A stretch of DNA of 24,000 bases from Candidatus Aenigmatarchaeota archaeon (lineage in GTDB: Archaea; Aenigmatarchaeota; Aenigmatarchaeia; GW2011-AR5; JACRAC01), in NCBI GenBank assembly GCA_016219465.1, contig JACRMW010000034.1:176-24175 (forward strand). Direction: 5' to 3'. Shown here piece by piece: positions 3,072 through 22,241 of the stretch (position 1 is its first letter; each line of letters opens with the position of its first letter). Made by a program: the position numbers and the translations under genes. Under the pieces are notes generated by a model that saw nothing but the letters and a program-made list of their open reading frames with translations, was not told the origin of the DNA and made no database searches.

Positions 3072-3348
3072 TTATAGTGGACCAACAAAAGAATACAAAC
3101 AGAAGCTTTGCTTCTGTTGTACAAGAAGGAATTTGCAATTCCTTCTGTACGCAAAGACTTGAGAAGTCTTTGCTGTACAGATTGAATCCTAGATTCAATC
3201 ATGTATAGCAACCAATGAAATATTATATGTAAGTATATATGGTGAAGCATAGCTTCACCTATACAGGTGGAACTATGTTCCACCATGTACCTGATTATTT
3301 CATTGGCTTGCTATAAATGCGATATCAAAAGAACTTGTTCTTGTATAG
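3072..3348 (-). repeat. TGTACA-hairpin mosaic array A (reverse orientation relative to B, C and D)
   Basis: Ends are TTATAG (3072-3077) and CTATAA (3311-3316). Perfect hairpins lie at 3098-3118, 3124-3146, 3151-3173, 3180-3200, 3241-3259 and 3266-3284, joined by TGTACA, TGTAC, ATGTAT or TATACA. An internal inverted repeat, TATAGCAACCAATGAAAT (3204-3221) / ATTTCATTGGCTTGCTATA (3297-3315, one extra base), encloses two hairpins. An extra weak hairpin lies at 3329-3342. Confidence 0.9.
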
Positions 3349-4578: not shown

Positions 4579-4773
4579 ATAATGGAGAAAGCAGTTCGCC
4601 TGATTTTCTTGTGAAAATAAAAACACCCCCTCTCTTAAGCAATTCAAGTCCTCCAATCTTTATTGGCCAGCGAAATTCAGGCCCTATTAATTCAGTTTAT
4701 AAGAATTTGCAGTTATGAGATTGCGCAATTGCCTGTTGCTGTCTCCGTTTCTTTCCAGATTCAGATTATCAAA

Positions 4774-4932
4774 ATAGAGGACTTTGAATAACATGTGTTT
4801 TGGTCAAAGTCCTTATTGAGAACTTTCACATGGTGTACACAAAGACCTTTAGTCTTTGTGTACAGCGTGTAAAAAGACTTCAGAATACCTGAAGTCTTTT
4901 TACAGATTGTAGGGTTAATCAAAGTTCTCAAT
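4774..4932 (+). mobile_element. family-2 two-hairpin MITE-like element, copy 1, carrying a 77-bp insertion of two TGTACA hairpins
   Basis: Terminal inverted repeat ATAGAGGACTTTGAATAAC / GTTAATCAAAGTTCTCAAT. Hairpin 1 is AGGACTTTGA...TCAAAGTCCT. Hairpin 2 (GAGAACTTT...AAAGTTCTC) is interrupted at 4829-4905. It aligns to copies at 20581-20665 (minus) and 22158-22241 (plus). Confidence 0.8.
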
Positions 4933-5119
4933 AATCATTCATTAGCGCGAGATGCTTTTTATAGCAGCCAGTAATAAATGCTCTAGATTCATCATCAAGA
5001 TAGTCTGCTGAAAACCATGGAATATTAAGAACCTTTTCTTTAGCTTTTTCAGCGCGCGATAATCTGTCATGCACTGTGATTGTTTCTCCAGTAGAATATG
5101 GCATATTATCATTAGCCAT
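4928..5119 (-). CDS. hypothetical small protein (63 aa)
   Basis: ORF 4928-5146; the ATG at 5119 gives MANDNMPYSTGE.... CACTATAAAAAC lies about 36 nt upstream. The last codons and the stop lie inside the family-2 element end. I recognise no family. Confidence 0.4.
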   Translation of the reverse strand: MANDNMPYSTGETITVHDRLSRAEKAKEKVLNIPWFSADYLDDESRAFITGCYKKHLALMNDY

Positions 5120-5152: not shown

Positions 5153-5225
5153 TTATAGTGAACCAAATATAGCTCGCTATAAACAATCCAGATACAACAA
5201 AGATTCTCTGAATCTTTGAATATAG
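5153..5225 (+). repeat. degenerate hairpin-array element with one cassette
   Basis: Starts TTATAGTGAACCAA at 5153 and contains TAGCTCGCTATAA. The hairpin CAAAGATT-CTCTG-AATCTTTG (5198-5218) is the same cassette as 5770-5792 with one loop change. Confidence 0.6.
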
Positions 5226-5737: not shown

Positions 5738-5846
5738 TTATAGTGAAGCAAGTAAATAATCAGAATAAAACAAAGATTCTCTAAATCTTTGTGTACAGAA
5801 AGAACTATGTTCTTTCTTGTATAATATCACTTGCTTCATATATAGC
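5738..5846 (+). repeat. TGTACA-hairpin element F (two cassettes with a closing stem)
   Basis: TTATAG-TGAAGCAAGT (5738-5753) pairs with ACTTGCTTCA (5829-5838), followed by TATATAGC. Hairpins lie at 5770-5792 and 5798-5816, separated by TGTACA (5792-5797) and followed by TGTAT. Confidence 0.85.
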
Positions 5847-5905
5847 AAACAACAAATATAATACTGAATACTTTGTTGTATTGCTATAAGCAAAGAGTGA
5901 TTTTT

Positions 5906-7570: not shown

Positions 7571-7677
7571 ATAAAATGGACAGAATTAGCCAGACATGGA
7601 ATGATCAATGAAATTGAAAGACTCCAAAAAGCAAACATTCTTAAAAAAATGATTGGCATCCTGTTGATGAAATGGAT

Positions 7678-7913
7678 TTATAGCAAACCAAGTAGATAAT
7701 CAGGTATGATACATGGTGGACCCGTTGAGTCCACCTGTACAGGTTGAGCATAGCTCAACCATGTATATTGGTTTGCTATACAGAATTGAACATAATTCAA
7801 TCTGTACAGGTAAAGCTTGCCTTGCCATGTATCGGTACAAGGAGGAAAATATATTTCCTCCTGTACAACAGAAGCAAAGCTTCTGTTTGTATTCTTTTGT
7901 TGGCTCACTATAA
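7678..7913 (+). repeat. TGTACA-hairpin mosaic array B
   Basis: Ends are TTATAG (7678-7683) and CTATAA (7908-7913). Hairpins lie at 7715-7735, 7742-7760, 7783-7802, 7809-7826, 7840-7862 and 7867-7887. Junctions are TGTACA at 7736, 7803 and 7862, GTACA at 7835, and ATGTAT/TGTAT variants. The inner inverted repeat TATAGCAAACCAA (7679-7691) / TTGGTTTGCTATA (7768-7780) encloses the first two hairpins. Confidence 0.9.
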
Positions 7914-7915
7914 TT

Positions 7916-9270: not shown

Positions 9271-9278
9271 TAGTGGGT

Positions 9279-9536
9279 ATGACTAATGTGAAAATTGATG
9301 ACAGGGGCAGAATATTAATACCTCAAGAAATTCGCGAAGCTATACATATGGAATCAGAAGAGGTGTTGAATCTGGTTTTAGAGGATGACACTATTCTTCT
9401 AAGGAGATTAAGACACAAAAAGACGCAGAAGAAGGATTCTTTGCTTGTTTTATTAGAATCTCCTATGCATGTTGATCCAAAGAAATTAAAGGGGATTGAT
9501 CTGGAAGAGATAGAGAATAAAATGTGGTTGCCGTGA
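9279..9536 (+). CDS. vapB: AbrB/SpoVT-family antitoxin (VapB-like)
   Basis: MTNVKIDDRGRILIPQEIREAIHMESEEVL is a canonical SpoVT-AbrB N-terminus. It overlaps the downstream PIN gene. Confidence 0.8.
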   Translation: MTNVKIDDRGRILIPQEIREAIHMESEEVLNLVLEDDTILLRRLRHKKTQKKDSLLVLLESPMHVDPKKLKGIDLEEIENKMWLP

Positions 9537-9925
9537 TTCTTATAGATTCCAATATATGGATTTTTGCAAATATTGAGGAATATCCTGAGAACAGTTCTGC
9601 AAGAAAACTCATAATAAATGCCACAAAAGAACAGATAGCAATCAATGCAATAATTTTGTCAGAAGTCTTTCATAAGCTGAGTGTCTTGACAAATGTTGAA
9701 AAGGCAATAAAAGCCATTGAAAATATCATTGATTCAGATTATGTTGTTTATCTGCCAATTGAAGAATCCACCATATCAAAAGCATTATATCTTACAAAGA
9801 AGCAACTTAGAATAAATGACGCTATAATTGCGCAGCATGCAAAGGACATTAGATGCAAACTCTTGAGCGACAATGCAAAGGATTTCAATAAAATAGACGG
9901 CATAAAGTTGTTAAAATTCAGATGA
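9524..9925 (+). CDS. vapC: PIN-domain ribonuclease toxin (VapC-like)
   Basis: Acidic PIN residues occur in LIDSN, SEV, NDAIIA and SDNAKDF. The GTG start at 9524 overlaps vapB by 13 nt; an in-frame GTG at 9533 overlaps by 4 nt (GTGA). Confidence 0.85.
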   Translation: MVAVILIDSNIWIFANIEEYPENSSARKLIINATKEQIAINAIILSEVFHKLSVLTNVEKAIKAIENIIDSDYVVYLPIEESTISKALYLTKKQLRINDAIIAQHAKDIRCKLLSDNAKDFNKIDGIKLLKFR

Positions 9926-11324: not shown

Positions 11325-11476
11325 TTATAGCCAACCAAATAAACAAACCGGACATAAATTTGGTTAGCTGCATTCAGAAAACAAAGTTTTCTGATGTGCC
11401 AAAGAACTTTTAGTTTTTTGAGCATATACGAGCAACAAAAAATATTATACTCGATTACTTTGTTAGCTCGCTATAT
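11325..11476 (+). repeat. degenerate member of the TTATAG-ended element superfamily
   Basis: TTATAG-CCAACCAAAT (11325-11340) pairs with ATTTGGTTAGCT (11358-11369). The hairpin CAGAAAAC-AAA-GTTTTCTG lies at 11375-11393. The closing repeat is CGAGCAACAAA...TTTGTTAGCTCG followed by CTATAT. The right end overlaps the last codons of the Rpp21 gene. Confidence 0.5.
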
Positions 11477-11798: not shown

Positions 11799-11922
11799 TC
11801 TTTCGCGCTCACTGCGCTCAGATGCGCATCAAAGATGCTTCTTCGCTTTGCTCGCTTGAATCTTTCGCGCTCACTGCGCTCAGATGCGCATCAAAGATGC
11901 TTCTTCGCTTTGCTCGCTTGAA
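11799..11922. repeat. perfect 62-bp x2 tandem repeat, locally GC-rich
   Basis: Unit TCTTTCGCGCTCACTGCGCTCAGATGCGCATCAAAGATGCTTCTTCGCTTTGCTCGCTTGAA occurs at 11799-11860 and 11861-11922. It contains the 10-bp palindrome GATGCGCATC. It fills most of the gap between the nuclease stop (11923) and the Rpp21 start (11786). Confidence 0.95.
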
Positions 11923-12459
11923 TCAGCAAACATTCTCAGACTTTTCATTGAATAGAGTGGTGTTGAAATAGATGCTGGAATTTGTGCGCAACGCAACTGC
12001 CATTGCATCAGAAGGCTTCATGTCCAGCTGCAAAATATCATTGCCAACCCTGAAATAAGCATCTGAATAAAATGTATCATCCGCAAATGCATAGACCATG
12101 ACTGATTCTACTTTTATATTATATGCCTGCATTAGCGAGACCATTCCTTCATAGATATCTGGCCTCTGATCAGTTCTGTTATAGAGAGCATTGAATATAC
12201 CCAAGGCTCTTTCGGGTGTTGTTTCTGCAGTCAGCTGTCTGCACCCTTTTTTTATCAGAACCGAGGCGCCTGTTACTTCAAAGGAATCTGGCTTAATATA
12301 ACCTGGAGGAACTTTCCATTCTGCATATTCTACATTGTCTTGCTGTCTGATAACATCAATGGATTTGCTTGTTGCTAAATACAGCAATAAAGACACTAGA
12401 ATAACTATGATTATTAACAATGCAACTGCAAGATAGAGAAATATAGAGTTTTTTGCCAT
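11923..12459 (-). CDS. membrane-anchored bifunctional nuclease family protein (DUF151/BFN)
   Basis: LQLDMKPSDAMAVALRTNSSIYF and the upstream PERALGIFNAL...DIYEGMVSLMQAYNIKVESVMVY match the DUF151 pattern (SRPSDAIALALR). The N-terminus MAKNSIFLYLAVALLIIIVILVSLLLYL is a transmembrane helix. The ATG at 12459 is preferred over the TTG at 12486. Confidence 0.7.
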   Translation of the reverse strand: MAKNSIFLYLAVALLIIIVILVSLLLYLATSKSIDVIRQQDNVEYAEWKVPPGYIKPDSFEVTGASVLIKKGCRQLTAETTPERALGIFNALYNRTDQRPDIYEGMVSLMQAYNIKVESVMVYAFADDTFYSDAYFRVGNDILQLDMKPSDAMAVALRTNSSIYFNTTLFNEKSENVC

Positions 12460-12541
12460 GTATATCAATATTTTATTAACAAACAAAGCATAAATATGTT
12501 TAAAACGAACTTTATTTTAGACTATATTTTTAGGGTTGTAT

Positions 12542-15927: not shown

Positions 15928-16208
15928 AACAAAATGACTTTCGAAGAAAGTCATTTTGTTCTTGTATAGGAAAGTATATTTATTATGATATTTTCCTATA
16001 CAAGACACACAGAAAGCAGAGCTTTCTGGTGCACCAAACAACGTATGTTGTTTGTGTGTTTAGCGAGCTTGCGAAGCAAGGCCGCTTTGTTCTTTCTGTA
16101 CAGGTAAAGCTTGCTTTACCATGTATCGGTACAAGGAGGAAAATATATTTCCTCCTGTACAACAGAAGCAAAGCTTCTGTTTGTATTCTTTTGTTGGCTC
16201 ACTATAAT
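15928..16208 (+). repeat. hairpin array C: long hairpins, a two-hairpin domain closed by ACACAC/GTGTGT, then three TGTACA cassettes
   Basis: 14-bp stem at 15928-15960. 13-bp stem at 15961-16004. ACACAC (16005-16010) / GTGTGT (16054-16059) encloses hairpins at 16010-16028 and 16035-16054. Cassettes lie at 16103-16120, 16134-16156 and 16161-16181. Segment 16097-16208 matches 7803-7914 at 110 of 112 positions. Confidence 0.9.
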
Positions 16209-18267: not shown

Positions 18268-20526
18268 TTATTTCTTCTCCAGTTTTGCAACAAGATGTTT
18301 TGTGTGAAATACTGCGTCTGTCTGAACACTAATGGAATCAATGCCTTGTTTTACTAGAAATTCCGCAAACTCTGGATAATTGCTTGGAGCTTCTCCGCAT
18401 ATGCCTACGGGTTTCTTATGAGCATGAGCTGTTTTGATAATCATTGAAACCATTCTTTTGACTGACTCATCTCGTTCATCAAAGCTTTTGGCAACCAACT
18501 CGCTGTTTCTGTCTATGCCAAGTGTCAGTTGCGTCAGATCGTTTGAGCCAATGCTAAAACCATCAAAATATTTTGAAAACTGGTCTGCAAGAATAACATT
18601 GCTTGGTATTTCTGCCATGGCATAACATTTTACTTTTCCTAGTCCAGACTTATTCAGTTCTTTTATAACCTCAGCAGCTTCCTTGATTGTCCTGCAGAAC
18701 GGAACCATTATTATAACATTGCTAAGTTTTGTTTCGTAGATTACTTTCCTCAATGCATGGCATTCTAGCGCAAAGGCTTTTTCAAATCCATGGCTGATGT
18801 ATCTAGATGCTCCACGCCAGCCTATCATTGGATTTTCTTCCAGAGGCTCGTATTCTTCACCGCCTTTCAGTCCCCTGTATTCATTTGTTTTGAAATCACT
18901 CAATCTGACTATCACTGGCCTTGGATAGAATGCTGCTGCAATCTTTGCAATTCCTTGAGCCAATTTATCAACATATTCCTGGCCACGATTTTGTCTTATC
19001 ATTGCAAGAGGATGTTCTTTAATAGCAGATGATATTATGAATTCCTGTCTTGCAAGACCAACTCCGTCAACAGGCAGCATTGCAGCATCCAATGCAAGAT
19101 CCGGATTTCCTACATTTACATAAATCTTTGTTCTTGTTTTTGGCAGTTCTGAAAGATCATATGTTTTAACAGAATATTTCAACAACCCATTCCATATTTT
19201 TCCTGTTTCAGCTGTGCAGTCAATTGTGATATTCTGATTGTTTTTTAGTTTCTTGACCGCTCCCTGGCAGCCAACTATGCATGGAATTCCTAGTTCTCTT
19301 GATACAATGGCTGCATGGCATGTTGAAGCGCCTGTCTCTGTTATGATTCCAGAAGCTATTTTCATTAAGGGCTCCCAATCTGGATTAGTGGTTCTTGTTA
19401 CAAGTATTCTTCCTTTTTTGAATTTATTGATTTCACTCAAGTTGTGTATTATATTTACAGCGCCAGCTGCAACTGAACGACCAATTGCAATTCCTTCCAT
19501 TACAGGAGATCCTTTTGCCTTTAGAGAGAATTCTTTATAAACAGGCTTTTTCTGCGAATAGACAGTTTCAGGCCTTGCCTGCAATATGAATATCTTTCCT
19601 TTTTCTTTTGCCCATTCAATATCCATTGGTTTTTTATAATGCTTCTCAATCATGATGCCATATTTTGCGAGCTCTGTGACCTCTTTTTCACTTAGCGCAA
19701 ATTCAACCTGTTTACCAGCAGAAACTTCTTTTCCTTTTACCCCTTCTTTTGCACTGATCTCCATTTTCTTTTTTAAACCTAGTTTTTTCTCTATAATTGT
19801 CATGGTTGCTTTGTGCACAAGATAACTGTCTGGATCTGTCTTTCCCTGCACAATATAATCGCCTAGTCCCCATGAGCTGTCTATCTTGATAAATCCAGAA
19901 TGACCTGAATTGGGCTCTATTGTAAACATCACACCGCTTGCATCTGAATAAATCATTTTCTGCACACCAACGCTCAGAAGAACTTTAAGGTGATCAAATC
20001 CCTTGTCTTCTCTGTAAGAAATTGCTCTGTCAGTAAAAAGAGATGCAAAACATTCTCTTATCCTGTTCAAGACCTCACTGCCTGATACATTGACATAACT
20101 CTCCTGCTGGCCTGCAAAAGACGCATCTGCGCTATCTTCTGTCGTGGCAGAGCTCCTAATAGCCACACGAAAACTGCTGTTGCTTTGCAGTTGTTTGCCT
20201 GCGCTTAATTTGTTGCAGGCTTCTGCTATCTCTTTTCTTAATTCCTTTGGAAAAGAGCCATTCTTTATAAGCCTCCTGATTTCACTGCCTGCGTCCTGTA
20301 GCTGGTCAATGCCTTTTCCTTTTCTTTTCAGTACATCCTTTATTTTCTCATCCAGTTTATTATGCAATATGAAATAACTATATCCTTCTGCAGTGACTGC
20401 AAAGCCGTCTGGCACAGGCAGGCCTGCTTTCAGCAGTTCACCAAGCGATGCATTCTTGCCGCCAACTGCAGAAACGTCTTTCATGCCAATCTCTGAAAAG
20501 AATTTTATGTATTTCATAACTACCAT
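18268..20526 (-). CDS. ppsA: phosphoenolpyruvate synthase (pyruvate, water dikinase)
   Basis: 752 aa. ATP-grasp N-terminus (VGGKNASLGEL), phosphohistidine swivel motif GASTCHAAIVSRELGIPCIVG, and a C-terminal PEP-utilising TIM-barrel domain (GFSIGSNDLTQL). Confidence 0.95.
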   Translation of the reverse strand: MVVMKYIKFFSEIGMKDVSAVGGKNASLGELLKAGLPVPDGFAVTAEGYSYFILHNKLDEKIKDVLKRKGKGIDQLQDAGSEIRRLIKNGSFPKELRKEIAEACNKLSAGKQLQSNSSFRVAIRSSATTEDSADASFAGQQESYVNVSGSEVLNRIRECFASLFTDRAISYREDKGFDHLKVLLSVGVQKMIYSDASGVMFTIEPNSGHSGFIKIDSSWGLGDYIVQGKTDPDSYLVHKATMTIIEKKLGLKKKMEISAKEGVKGKEVSAGKQVEFALSEKEVTELAKYGIMIEKHYKKPMDIEWAKEKGKIFILQARPETVYSQKKPVYKEFSLKAKGSPVMEGIAIGRSVAAGAVNIIHNLSEINKFKKGRILVTRTTNPDWEPLMKIASGIITETGASTCHAAIVSRELGIPCIVGCQGAVKKLKNNQNITIDCTAETGKIWNGLLKYSVKTYDLSELPKTRTKIYVNVGNPDLALDAAMLPVDGVGLARQEFIISSAIKEHPLAMIRQNRGQEYVDKLAQGIAKIAAAFYPRPVIVRLSDFKTNEYRGLKGGEEYEPLEENPMIGWRGASRYISHGFEKAFALECHALRKVIYETKLSNVIIMVPFCRTIKEAAEVIKELNKSGLGKVKCYAMAEIPSNVILADQFSKYFDGFSIGSNDLTQLTLGIDRNSELVAKSFDERDESVKRMVSMIIKTAHAHKKPVGICGEAPSNYPEFAEFLVKQGIDSISVQTDAVFHTKHLVAKLEKK

Positions 20527-20552
20527 TATTCTACTTATTACATTCAGCCTGT

Positions 20553-20665
20553 TATATAGCTCTCCAATGAAGTATTCACTATAGAGAACTTTGATTAACC
20601 CTACAACTCATCAAAGTTCACAATAAGGACCTTGACCAAAACACACATTATTCAAAGTCCTCTAT
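20553..20665 (-). mobile_element. family-2 two-hairpin MITE-like element, copy 2 (reverse), preceded by a TATAG...CTATAG mini-module
   Basis: The reverse complement of 20581-20665 aligns to 4774-4828 plus 4906-4932, and to 22158-22241. The mini-module 20553-20584 reads TTATATAGCTCTCCAATGAAGTATTCACTATAG. Confidence 0.8.
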
Positions 20666-20844
20666 ATTATTTCATTGGAAGCTATACATGGTTGAACCAT
20701 GTTCAACCTGTACAGCAAAGACTTCTCAAGTCTTTGCGTACAGAAGGAATTGCAAATTCCTTCTTGTACAGATGAACTCTCTAAGTTCATCATGTATGTG
20801 AACCAACTATTATCATACCTGATTATTTAGTTGGTTCACTATAG
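20666..20844 (+). repeat. TGTACA-hairpin mosaic array D
   Basis: Hairpins lie at 20690-20708, 20715-20737, 20742-20764 and 20771-20791, with TGTACA or GTACA at 20709, 20738 and 20765. The closing hairpin is GTGAACCAACT (20798-20808) / AGTTGGTTCAC (20829-20839), followed by CTATAG. Segment 20709-20770 is identical to the reverse complement of 3118-3179. Confidence 0.9.
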
Positions 20845-20922: not shown

Positions 20923-22158
20923 TTGGTAAAACTTCTATTGGTCCCTTGTTCTGGAGGAGAAACATCTGACTTAACACGAGGAATCTTAAACGCTTTGAAA
21001 CATGATCACAATCTTGGTGAAGATGTTGAGATTTTAGGAAGCAGTAGATCAATAACTATAGAAAAAGGCACTCCAAAAGATAATAGATATCCTTTAGTGG
21101 TTGATTATTTTGATGATGGTGAAGTTCGCGCAGATATTGGAAAAAACGAATTAATCGACACTATCAGAGGCAGACATGTTGTTCTTATAGAACACCTACT
21201 AACACCTGACAGAGAAATGTTTTCAGATTTTATAGGACAAAAGGTTTCTGTCAATGACCATGTCGCAACAGTAAAAGGCGTTCTGAATCTACTTTCAAAT
21301 ACTGATGCACTTGGAAGAATTCTAGTCGCACCATATCTTACATATGTACGCTCACATAGTGTTGAAAAATATAGAGAGCAAGAATTTTTTCAATTTGATT
21401 CGTTGAATATGTTTTTAAAAGAATTCCAAAATTCAAAATTAGACACGTTAGTAACATTAGATCCTCATTCTGACAAAGCAAAACAAATTGCAGAAGAATT
21501 TGGTATGTATTATCATGCTGCAAATCCTTTCCAATCAACTAGATCATTAAATCCATATAAACTAGGCATTGCTGATGAAAAAATAGACAGTGTAATGAAT
21601 AATCTCAGACCTTTTCATAAAAGATTTGAAGAAATGAAAAAAGAATATGGGAATCGTCTTTATTTGGTATCAGTTGATGATGGCACCGAAGGAAGGGTAG
21701 AAAACTTTGTCGATAGATGTTTTGCAGAGCTCCAACCAAAAGAATATTATGCAAGGGTTATGTATTTTGACAAAAGACGAGTTGCTCTAGATAAAAGTGA
21801 ATATAAAGTAAAACCTTTTAGTAAGATAAATAGAAAAAATGTTGATAAAGAAGGAATTTATATAATAATTGATGATATGTATGCAAGTGGAGGAACTGCT
21901 TGTGATGTCGGTGAAATATTAAAAAAAGCTGGTGCAAACCGAGTAGAAGTCTGGACATCTCATGTAGTTACAACACCAAGACAATATGAAAAAAGTAATA
22001 ATAGACCATATATAGATGCCCTCGTATGTATTGATACTGTTCCAAGAAATGATGGATTAAAAGTTGAATATATTCCTGCAAGCACAGCACTTCTAGCATC
22101 AGAAATATACAAAGCCCATCAAAAACTTGTAAACGAAAGATTACGTAGATTTAGATAA
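20923..22158 (+). CDS. prs: divergent ribose-phosphate pyrophosphokinase (PRPP synthetase)-like protein, 411 aa
   Basis: FDDGEVRADI, HVVLIEH, APYLTYVRSH, LDPHS and the PRPP-binding loop IIIDDMYASGGTACD follow the Prs order of motifs, but with longer linkers. TTG start with GGTG upstream. Confidence 0.75.
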   Translation: MVKLLLVPCSGGETSDLTRGILNALKHDHNLGEDVEILGSSRSITIEKGTPKDNRYPLVVDYFDDGEVRADIGKNELIDTIRGRHVVLIEHLLTPDREMFSDFIGQKVSVNDHVATVKGVLNLLSNTDALGRILVAPYLTYVRSHSVEKYREQEFFQFDSLNMFLKEFQNSKLDTLVTLDPHSDKAKQIAEEFGMYYHAANPFQSTRSLNPYKLGIADEKIDSVMNNLRPFHKRFEEMKKEYGNRLYLVSVDDGTEGRVENFVDRCFAELQPKEYYARVMYFDKRRVALDKSEYKVKPFSKINRKNVDKEGIYIIIDDMYASGGTACDVGEILKKAGANRVEVWTSHVVTTPRQYEKSNNRPYIDALVCIDTVPRNDGLKVEYIPASTALLASEIYKAHQKLVNERLRRFR

Positions 22159-22241
22159 TTGAGGACCTTGAATAACATGCTTTTTACTCAAAGTCCTTAT
22201 TCCGAACTTTGCCAAAACATGGGTTAATCAAAGTTCTCAAT
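22158..22241 (+). mobile_element. family-2 two-hairpin MITE-like element, copy 3
   Basis: ATTGAGGACCTTGAATAAC...GTTAATCAAAGTTCTCAAT, a terminal inverted repeat of about 18 bp with 3 mismatches. It starts on the last base of the prs stop codon. Confidence 0.8.

Follow-up and report, generated by a model that had tools for sequence, protein, structure and literature searches.

TA-flanked twin-hairpin units and their nested arrays in intergenic DNA of a Candidatus Aenigmatarchaeota archaeon as candidates for very small non-autonomous mobile elements

[quoted passage not shown] The modules of BOX do not consist of TA-bounded hairpin pairs, and we know of no nesting of BOX at a palindromic junction. 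Targeting of TA with duplication of this dinucleotide is documented for IS630/Tc1-mariner transposases (PMC2170065), and archaeal MITEs rely on transposases supplied in trans; those of Sulfolobus, SMN1 (320 bp) and SM3A (164 bp), are tied to ISC1733 and ISC1058 (PMC3718332). CREE of 69-151 bp with a 26-bp inverted repeat were reported as unique to Neisseria, and the ends of Correia elements can supply promoter elements (PMC5039591). Here, we analyzed 24,000 nt of a Candidatus Aenigmatarchaeota archaeon (the window; positions 176 to 24,175 of contig JACRMW010000034.1, assembly GCA_016219465.1), and in particular a 62-nt block at 20709-20770, which lies in one of several hairpin arrays (A to D) linked by TGTACA palindromes and may be a mobile element of this general kind.

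The initial annotation of the window had described the block as TGTACA-GCAAAGACTTCTCAAGTCTTTGC-GTACA-GAAGGAATTGCAAATTCCTTCT-TGTACA and as a copy of the reverse complement of 3118-3179 in array A, and direct comparison confirmed identity at 62/62 positions; with 99% identity, the repeat can be followed over 69 nt (3118-3186 vs 20702-20770). The cassettes flanking the block are GGTTGAAC.. and GATGAACT.. in array D and GATTGAATC.. and ACAGAAGC.. in array A, the ACAGAAGC cassette together with the right end is common to arrays A, B, and C, and the AGGAGGAAA and GGTAAAGC cassettes are found, among the arrays of the window, in B and C only, all of which agreed with the earlier description when checked at the arrays. 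Both copies were also held to lie in different neighborhoods, which is correct to the right of the second TGTACA, where the hairpins of A and D are unrelated in sequence and the change is abrupt, whereas the left sides are colinear homologous copies: A (minus strand) and D (plus strand) align, with gaps, over 110 nt at 91% identity. Within this alignment a core of 69 nt carries a single difference, while the remaining 41 columns, comprising the arm of a type-I module at 88% identity and a first hairpin with paired changes, are approximately 76% identical. Under uniform divergence a core as clean as this one would arise with P ~6e-9. Whole-element copies that diverged by point mutation, with breakpoints away from the junctions, the explanation that the annotation had set against its own, therefore do not describe these arrays. 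Similarly, arrays A and B are colinear over approximately 250 nt, with the segment between two TGTACA sites swapped.

The block consists of one 54-nt twin-hairpin unit (Table 1) and the flanking TG-TA and TA-CA, the TA dinucleotides being located at 20711-20712 and 20767-20768. Such type-II units comprise two different perfect hairpins, with stems of 8-10 bp and loops of 3-5 nt, joined by GTAC, TGTACA or GTGCAC; they have CA...TG ends (sometimes CG), are flanked by TA and measure 50-54 nt, a size range that holds in four genomes. Since units run from CA to TG between TA flanks, a TGTACA junction is composed of TG from the end of one unit, TA, and CA from the start of the next. Thus, exchange at the junctions stands as annotated, but the unit that moves is the hairpin pair of 50-54 bp with CA...TG ends and not a single hairpin, and the site TGTACA can be narrowed to the TA at its center, of which empty sites hold one and filled sites one on either side. 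Moreover, A and D are related to each other, as both hold the inner unit at the central TA of a 52-nt outer unit: when the 54-nt inner unit and one TA are removed, outer units of exactly 52 nt remain in both, namely CATGATTGAATC..-TG-TA-CA-ACAGAAGC..TTTG in A and CATGGTTGAAC..-TG-TA-CA-GATGAACT..CATG in D. The nested elements are in turn flanked by TA at 3094-3095 and 3204-3205 (A) and at 20685-20686 and 20795-20796 (D).

The window contains 2-3 copies of each twin-hairpin unit and, by itself, more than 15 different perfect stems with a symmetric TGTACA or GTAC junction, and the number of hairpins in TA-type arrays is always two or four. Type-I modules are long-loop hairpins of approximately 45 bp with TATA at both borders and the termini TATAGTG[GA]ACCAA.../...TTGGTTCACTATA, and their end motif TTGGNTNNCTATA is present 19 times as compared to 2.1 expected. 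The complete module at 20798-20843 can also be written as GTGAACCAAC-[20-nt loop with CCTGATTATTT]-GTTGGTTCAC-TATA; it is multi-copy in the genome JACPRW01, with 23/24 positions of the terminal motif identical. Altogether, nested palindromic modules make up about one third (approximately 1.8 of 5.5 kb) of the window's non-coding DNA. This density is not expected by chance: TGTACA occurs 13 times vs 4.3 expected, a count reached in 0/100 shuffles, and perfect hairpins with stems of at least 7 bp number 41 vs 11-29 in shuffled sequences, 35 of them in non-coding DNA, which makes up 23% of the window. Of these 35 intergenic hairpins, 18 carry TA-type flanks at either side vs ~2% expected (P ~4e-21). 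Folding of 20684-20800 as single-stranded DNA yielded -35.2 kcal/mol (z = -11.9), with the two TGTACA paired around the block and ATACAT paired with ATGTAT around the whole array.

TABLE 1. Positions of the hairpin units, modules and arrays described for the window.
Feature	Position	Strand	Structure and remarks
Inner twin-hairpin unit, 54 nt	20713-20766	+	CA-[GCAAAGACTT ctc AAGTCTTTGC]-G-TA-C-[AGAAGGAATT gca AATTCCTTCT]-TG
Inner unit, second copy (array A)	3122-3175	-	100% identical; TA on both sides
Array D nested element, 108 nt	20687-20794	+	Outer 52-nt unit CATGGTTGAAC..ACCTG-TA-CAGATGAACT..CATCATG; inner unit at central TA
Array A nested element, 108 nt	3096-3203	-	Outer 52-nt unit CATGATTGAATC..ATCTG-TA-CAACAGAAGC..CTGTTTG; identical inner unit at central TA
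Whole array A	3072-3320	-	Colinear with B outside the segment that two TGTACA sites enclose
Whole array B	7676-7914	+	Type-I module with twin-hairpin unit (7715-7760) in its loop; second unit GAATTGAAC-TGTACA-GGTAAAGC; 52-nt unit; M1 arm
52-nt twin-hairpin unit, array B	7838-7889	+	CA-AGGAGGAAA..-TGTACA-ACAGAAGC..-TTG; TA on both sides
52-nt unit of array B, copy in array C	16132-16183	+	
Type-I module arm	20663-20686	+	TATATTATTTCATTGGAAGCTATA; homologous to 3204-3227 on the minus strand
Complete type-I module	20798-20843	+	GTGAACCAAC-[TATTATCATACCTGATTATT]-TAGTTGGTTCAC-TATA
Type-I module with twin-hairpin unit (5770-5817) in its loop, then second type-I module	5738-5890	+	Just upstream of ftsY
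Type-III module	20580-20666	+	Two long-loop hairpins bounded by TATA; further copies 4773-4933 and 22157-22241
Twin hairpin with GTGCAC hinge	16010-16054	+	ACACA...TGTGT flanks; architecture as in a 52-nt unit of JACPRW01
Module-type end	20552-20571	-	TTCATTGGAGAGCTATATAA; ~40 nt upstream of the phosphoenolpyruvate synthase start

Presence and absence of units was assessed by joining the flanks of each unit and searching with the joined sequence. The JACPRW01 unit CAAGGTGGATTC..CTCCTCG is flanked by TA..TA, and only one TA is present at each of six paralogous empty sites (..GGAAGTAA-TA-TCGTG..); likewise, the JACPRW01 unit CATGGTAAAGC..CACCATG has TA..TA flanks and five empty sites, each with one TA. 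TA..TA also flanks the 52-nt unit of arrays B and C, and a locus of the sister genome (L010) is empty with one TA, reading ACCATGTATCGG-TA-TTCTTTTATTGG. Conversely, L010 carries an insert exactly at the TA of a TGTACA that is uninterrupted in array B of the window; this insert measures 169 nt, including one of its two flanking TAs, starts with CA and ends with TG directly before TA. When both inserts are taken out, the backbones of window array B and L010 match at 90/101 positions. As MAFFT misplaced large gaps on nested copies, the inserts were cut out explicitly and the sequences re-aligned. In sum, three independent units showed TA..TA when filled and a single TA when empty, and the pair of window array B and L010 adds the reciprocal case. 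The cassette-wise recombination or insertion at TGTACA proposed in the initial annotation thus gains support, with the refinements given above, from filled and empty sites as well as from the positions of breakpoints. For the latter, an all-against-all blastn comparison of the window and the Aenigmatarchaeota loci was used, in which non-redundant ends of shared blocks inside TA-type arrays were counted. The boundaries fell into junction zones in 30/33 cases as compared to 52% under the null (P = 2e-6), and in 23/27 cases (P = 3e-4 against the same null) by a stricter count, after neighboring positions had been collapsed and one boundary reassigned.

Modules of the same architecture are present in related genomes. 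A scan with the type-I motif of one genome per species (GTDB representatives) detected 56 loci, of which approximately 33 derived from JACPRW01, a groundwater Aenigmatarchaeota metagenome-assembled genome (MAG) with a G+C content (GC) of 53%, two each from JACPJV01 (46% GC) and JAZDMZ01 (32% GC), and one from DATDTP01; the remaining loci were scattered chance matches. In approximately 220 kb of JACPRW01, a composite that is 96, 148 or 242 nt long and has the constant termini TATAGTGG...CACTATA was found in at least 21 distinct full copies, their flanks being unique. Modules and stems recur in Aenigmatarchaeota genomes of 32, 36, 46 and 53% GC, the stems GGTAAAGC, GGTGGAAC, xCAGAAGC and AGGAGGAA with differing loops. 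Since the identical architecture is present in four independent MAGs, an assembly artefact could be excluded. Three more distant Aenigmatarchaeota loci (41 kb in total) contained neither the type-I motif nor arrays; collections of viral, plasmid and phage sequences gave nothing meaningful apart from one chance match inside a phage gene, a single scan of metagenomes with the hairpin GCAAAGACTTNNNAAGTCTTTGC returned only unrelated terminator-like hairpins, and no description of such arrays in Aenigmatarchaeota or DPANN archaea was found in the literature. Two observations concern JACPRW01 in particular. Composite elements, for example those at L011 (~3238-3333) and L046 (4488-4583), end approximately 30-35 nt from tRNA genes. 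It may be that transcription of the tRNAs is driven from the element end, or that tRNA-proximal DNA is a target of the elements. Furthermore, at L018, L022 and L053 hairpin clusters are joined by other alternating purine-pyrimidine palindromes (GCATGC, GTGCAC, TGCATA), and the hinge may therefore need flexibility rather than a particular sequence.

The arrays are modular in anatomy, their units are present or absent between TA flanks, breakpoints concentrate at the junctions, and near-identical copies are dispersed in related genomes. TA-flanked presence and absence, quantised size, nesting, dispersed copies and random orientation relative to genes together point to non-autonomous mobile elements that integrate at TA; module ends face gene starts and gene ends alike (~8/15 are directed toward gene 3' ends), as expected for insertions. 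Accordingly, we favor, with a probability of about 0.55, the reading that the block is a very small, non-autonomous, TA-targeting mobile element, MITE-like and with an IS630/Tc1-mariner-type signature. Following this, we propose that units of approximately 52 bp insert at TA dinucleotides and duplicate the TA, most likely by means of a TA-specific transposase of the IS630/Tc1-mariner kind that acts in trans, with the alternating purine-pyrimidine hinge providing the flexibility by which the two unit ends would meet. As the hinge and borders of units themselves contain TA, new units would land in or beside old ones, and repeated nesting would build arrays in which every junction reads TG-TA-CA, i.e., TGTACA. 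A stretch that starts at one CA end and stops at any later TG end could then act as a unit and be moved or excised, and cassettes would be shuffled exactly at TGTACA because each has identical CA...TG ends. In arrays A and D, one 54-nt unit would have entered the central TA of two 52-nt outer units that had already diverged, and these outer units would themselves be located within or next to larger hairpin modules of this family with TATA borders.

Several observations weigh against this reading. The counts of shared-block boundaries are biased toward junctions, since alignments run naturally through a shared junction, and the truncated copy at 2342-2384 breaks within a hairpin loop and is a true counter-example to the junction rule; this 43-nt copy of 5804-5846 (98% identity), whose left end is the one in the loop, is located just upstream of a DUF429-like gene. 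A 52-nt GTGCAC-hinged unit of JACPRW01 is flanked by TA..TA, yet nine empty copies read TATA, which is compatible with excision that keeps both TAs and not with simple insertion. Formally, duplication of TA cannot be separated from an element that carries one TA and inserts next to a TA, and all comparisons are of paralogous copies or between species. Moreover, a transposase gene was not found in the window and a multi-copy open reading frame (ORF) was absent from approximately 290 kb of sampled Aenigmatarchaeota DNA, the sole paralogous ORF pair of the sampled loci encoding aminotransferases and not a transposase; a scan for distant end pairs enclosing an ORF yielded nothing clear. At 50-54 bp, the units fall below the size of the prokaryotic MITEs with which they were compared (CREE, 69-151 bp; PMC5039591), and it may be difficult for a cut-and-paste enzyme to bring together the ends of such short double-stranded DNA. 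Finally, the two unit ends match at only 6-9/12 positions (read by eye), which makes them weak terminal inverted repeats.

Alternatively, the composites might have been duplicated whole, with gene conversion or homologous recombination homogenizing segments such as the 62-nt block without any mobility of cassettes, in which case the junctions would appear as breakpoints because they are the sole sequence that all cassettes share. The colinearity of A and D on their left side and the whole 114-119-nt piece that B and C share (97-98% identity) would fit such a history, as would the boundary bias that follows when alignments necessarily cross conserved junctions. However, homologous recombination needs more than six shared bp, the hairpins that follow the block on its right are unrelated, units and outer units alike come in a quantised size of 50-54 nt, and gene conversion does not yield TA-flanked inserts with single-TA empty sites, the reciprocal case of the window and L010 included. 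We therefore regard homogenization of immobile copies as unlikely.

Comparably improbable in our view is mobility of hairpins in single-stranded DNA in the style of REP/RAYT or IS200/IS605, by which an HUH tyrosine enzyme would read the folded hairpins, cut at GTA/TAC and move hairpin pairs by peel-and-paste during replication. In its favor, the stems are perfect Watson-Crick palindromes, often closed by GC-NNN-GC triloops that are stable in DNA, the folding z-score given above fits, the pairing of two different hairpins in a unit recalls the hairpins at the left and right ends of IS200/IS605, clusters look like enterobacterial BIMEs, and small size would not hinder a single-strand mechanism. 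Contrarily, IS200/IS605 and REP leave no target duplication and use targets of 4-5 nt, whereas the insertion sites of the present units share nothing but TA, which stands on both sides of the insert; this also argues against an IS200/IS605-derived, PATE-like element. Stems are very diverse and do not fall into one or few sequence families, and no RAYT (Y1 HUH) gene was seen in the window or in the limited sample of loci.

Least probable, and in our judgment very unlikely, is that the arrays are purely functional cis-elements (protein-binding palindromes, transcript-end or stabilizer hairpins, or donors of TATA boxes) kept by selection, with stems recurring because a host factor reads them: identical stems with differing loops across genomes of 32-53% GC, paired changes that keep stems perfect (GATTGAATC vs GGTTGAAC) and module ends at TATA-box distance from gene starts such as that of phosphoenolpyruvate (PEP) synthase would agree with it, but orientation and distance to genes are inconsistent, orthologous spacers in relatives are wholly without arrays, TA-flanked presence and absence together with near-identical dispersed copies point to insertion, and Rfam gave no match for the window, either at the gathering threshold or with E values of up to 1, nor was a tRNA found there. 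Secondary co-option of mobile elements would be compatible with a role in cis. Compared with TA-targeted mobility, neither purely functional cis-elements nor conversion between whole copies accounts for as much of the data. Three further candidates were dropped. A dedicated promoter motif disagrees with the many module ends that face gene 3' ends; a CRISPR array disagrees with a constant part of only 4-6 nt, variable parts that are perfect palindromes and the lack of cas genes in the window; and avoidance of GTAC by restriction-modification disagrees with GTAC not being depleted overall, nor in related genomes. In coding DNA of the window GTAC occurs 5 times vs 12.9 expected from a Markov model and 63 from composition alone, and 18/23 GTAC sites lie in the non-coding part.

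As compared to known systems, the TA-targeting units agree best with MITEs of the IS630/Tc1-mariner type: they are short and non-coding with inverted termini, insertion occurs with TA on both sides of the insert (with the TATA exception described above), and near-identical copies are numerous and dispersed; dependence on a transposase in trans would be a further likeness (PMC2170065; PMC3718332). The Sulfolobus MITEs, however, are larger and each has an identifiable parent insertion sequence (IS), whereas no parent IS was found in the window or the sampled loci for the 50-54-bp units, whose ends are, unlike those of Sulfolobus MITEs, each a perfect palindrome and only weakly alike. Correia elements are similarly small, non-coding, intergenic and multi-copy with inverted ends starting TATAGTGG; the Correia repeat tatagtggattaacaaaaatcaggacaa (PMC5039591) and the type-I end TATAGTGGACCAACAAAAGAATAC are identical at 16 of their first 19 bases, the right end of the modules reads ..CCTGATTATTTACTTGGTTCACTATA and that of Correia ..CCTGATTTTTGTTAATCCACTATA, and module ends in the window, like Correia ends, can place a TATA-like box beside genes, e.g., upstream of PEP synthase. 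Despite this similarity, the elements of the window are not assigned to the Correia family: only the first ~19 nt are similar, a Correia core is lacking, and the elements are smaller (~45-54 bp), consist entirely of hairpins, form self-nesting arrays and occur in DPANN archaea. The terminal similarity may serve as a lead and does not demonstrate a relationship. Clusters of short, paired intergenic palindromes with short linkers are also typical of REP/BIME and of REPIN with RAYT, and the possible upkeep by a single-copy domesticated enzyme rather than by a multi-copy IS would be a further parallel to REPINs (bioRxiv 10.1101/2021.07.10.451892). Yet the palindromes of REPs are imperfect, belong to one or a few sequence families and carry an asymmetric 5' GTAG-type motif, and REPs leave no target duplication, whereas the more than 15 stems here are diverse and perfect, the TGTACA or GTAC junction is symmetric, and TA stands on both sides, which sets the arrays apart from REP/BIME-RAYT. 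With BOX elements they share a modular construction that gives rise to mosaic copies. Within TA-targeting miniature non-autonomous elements, the units described here are unusual in size, all-hairpin build, self-nesting and host lineage.

It is a tentative possibility, which we rate well below the TA-targeting reading itself, that these are the smallest transposable elements yet seen: units of approximately 52 bp with two palindromic, enzyme-binding ends and a flexible, TA-containing hinge, which would prefer each other's hinge and assemble themselves into arrays, and whose larger TATA-bounded relatives share terminal sequence with Correia elements. If the units truly transpose, they would set a new lower size limit for mobile DNA and provide a natural system for following array growth, cassette shuffling and excision in the sequence itself. 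If the link to Correia elements is real, a single TA-specific transposase or domesticated enzyme would be required by both an archaeal and a bacterial family. We know of no enzyme assigned to the Correia elements of Neisseria, and the Correia-like module ends would provide a concrete route toward the enzyme behind both families. In addition, although DPANN genomes are tiny and streamlined, the modules do much to shape intergenic space, and possibly promoters as well.

The window (36% GC) was placed in Candidatus Aenigmatarchaeota (DPANN) via its PEP synthase, and its genes are archaeal (PolX, eIF6, prefoldin, FtsY, S19e, Rpr2, CorA, PCNA, PEP synthase, subtilase). The nearest relative, the sister genome referred to above, is the MAG GCA_043800495.1 (JAZDMZ01), with 80% amino acid identity of PEP synthase. 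Array D is located between the divergent genes for PEP synthase and a phosphoribosyl pyrophosphate (PRPP) synthase-like protein. As this spacer comprises approximately 400 nt in the window as compared to 117 nt in the sister genome and approximately 100-110 nt in two more distant Aenigmatarchaeota, array D represents an insertion into an ancestrally short spacer. The type-I arm to its left and the next 10 nt align with array A over 34 nt at 88% identity (3194-3227 vs 20663-20696). Module ends of the form TTGGnnnnCTATA(A) are found at plausible TATA-box distance upstream of PEP synthase (Table 1), of a small ORF at 4928-5116 (end at 5154-5166, minus strand) and of a gene for a protein with a tRNA-binding domain (end at 11326-11338, minus strand), and in the sister genome an ordinary TTTTTATATTA box stands where PEP synthase of the window has the module end. 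The elements may thus have replaced or donated promoters, and the end upstream of PEP synthase may be a donated TATA box.

The two hairpins of type-III modules read GAACTTTGAT.. and AGGACyTTGA... The copy at 4773-4933 is broken up by approximately 80 nt of TGTACA-linked hairpins (4827-4906), while the other two copies are intact; this insertion was left out of the count of filled sites, its left border being too diverged to define the target. Several further features of the window were noted. Its PEP synthase (18268-20526) is intein-free, unlike homologues of several Aenigmatarchaeota, which comprise 1150-1270 amino acids and contain intein/LAGLIDADG domains. At 9273-9925, a small ORF is followed by a gene for a PIN-domain-like protein (judged from the translation alone), which suggests a VapBC-type toxin-antitoxin pair amid housekeeping genes. 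Finally, a 62-nt unit (52% GC) is perfectly duplicated in tandem at 11799-11922, between the RNase P Rpr2 gene and an ORF at 11923-12486; no ORF spans it, it has no Rfam match, and its predicted structure is modest (-15 to -17 kcal/mol).

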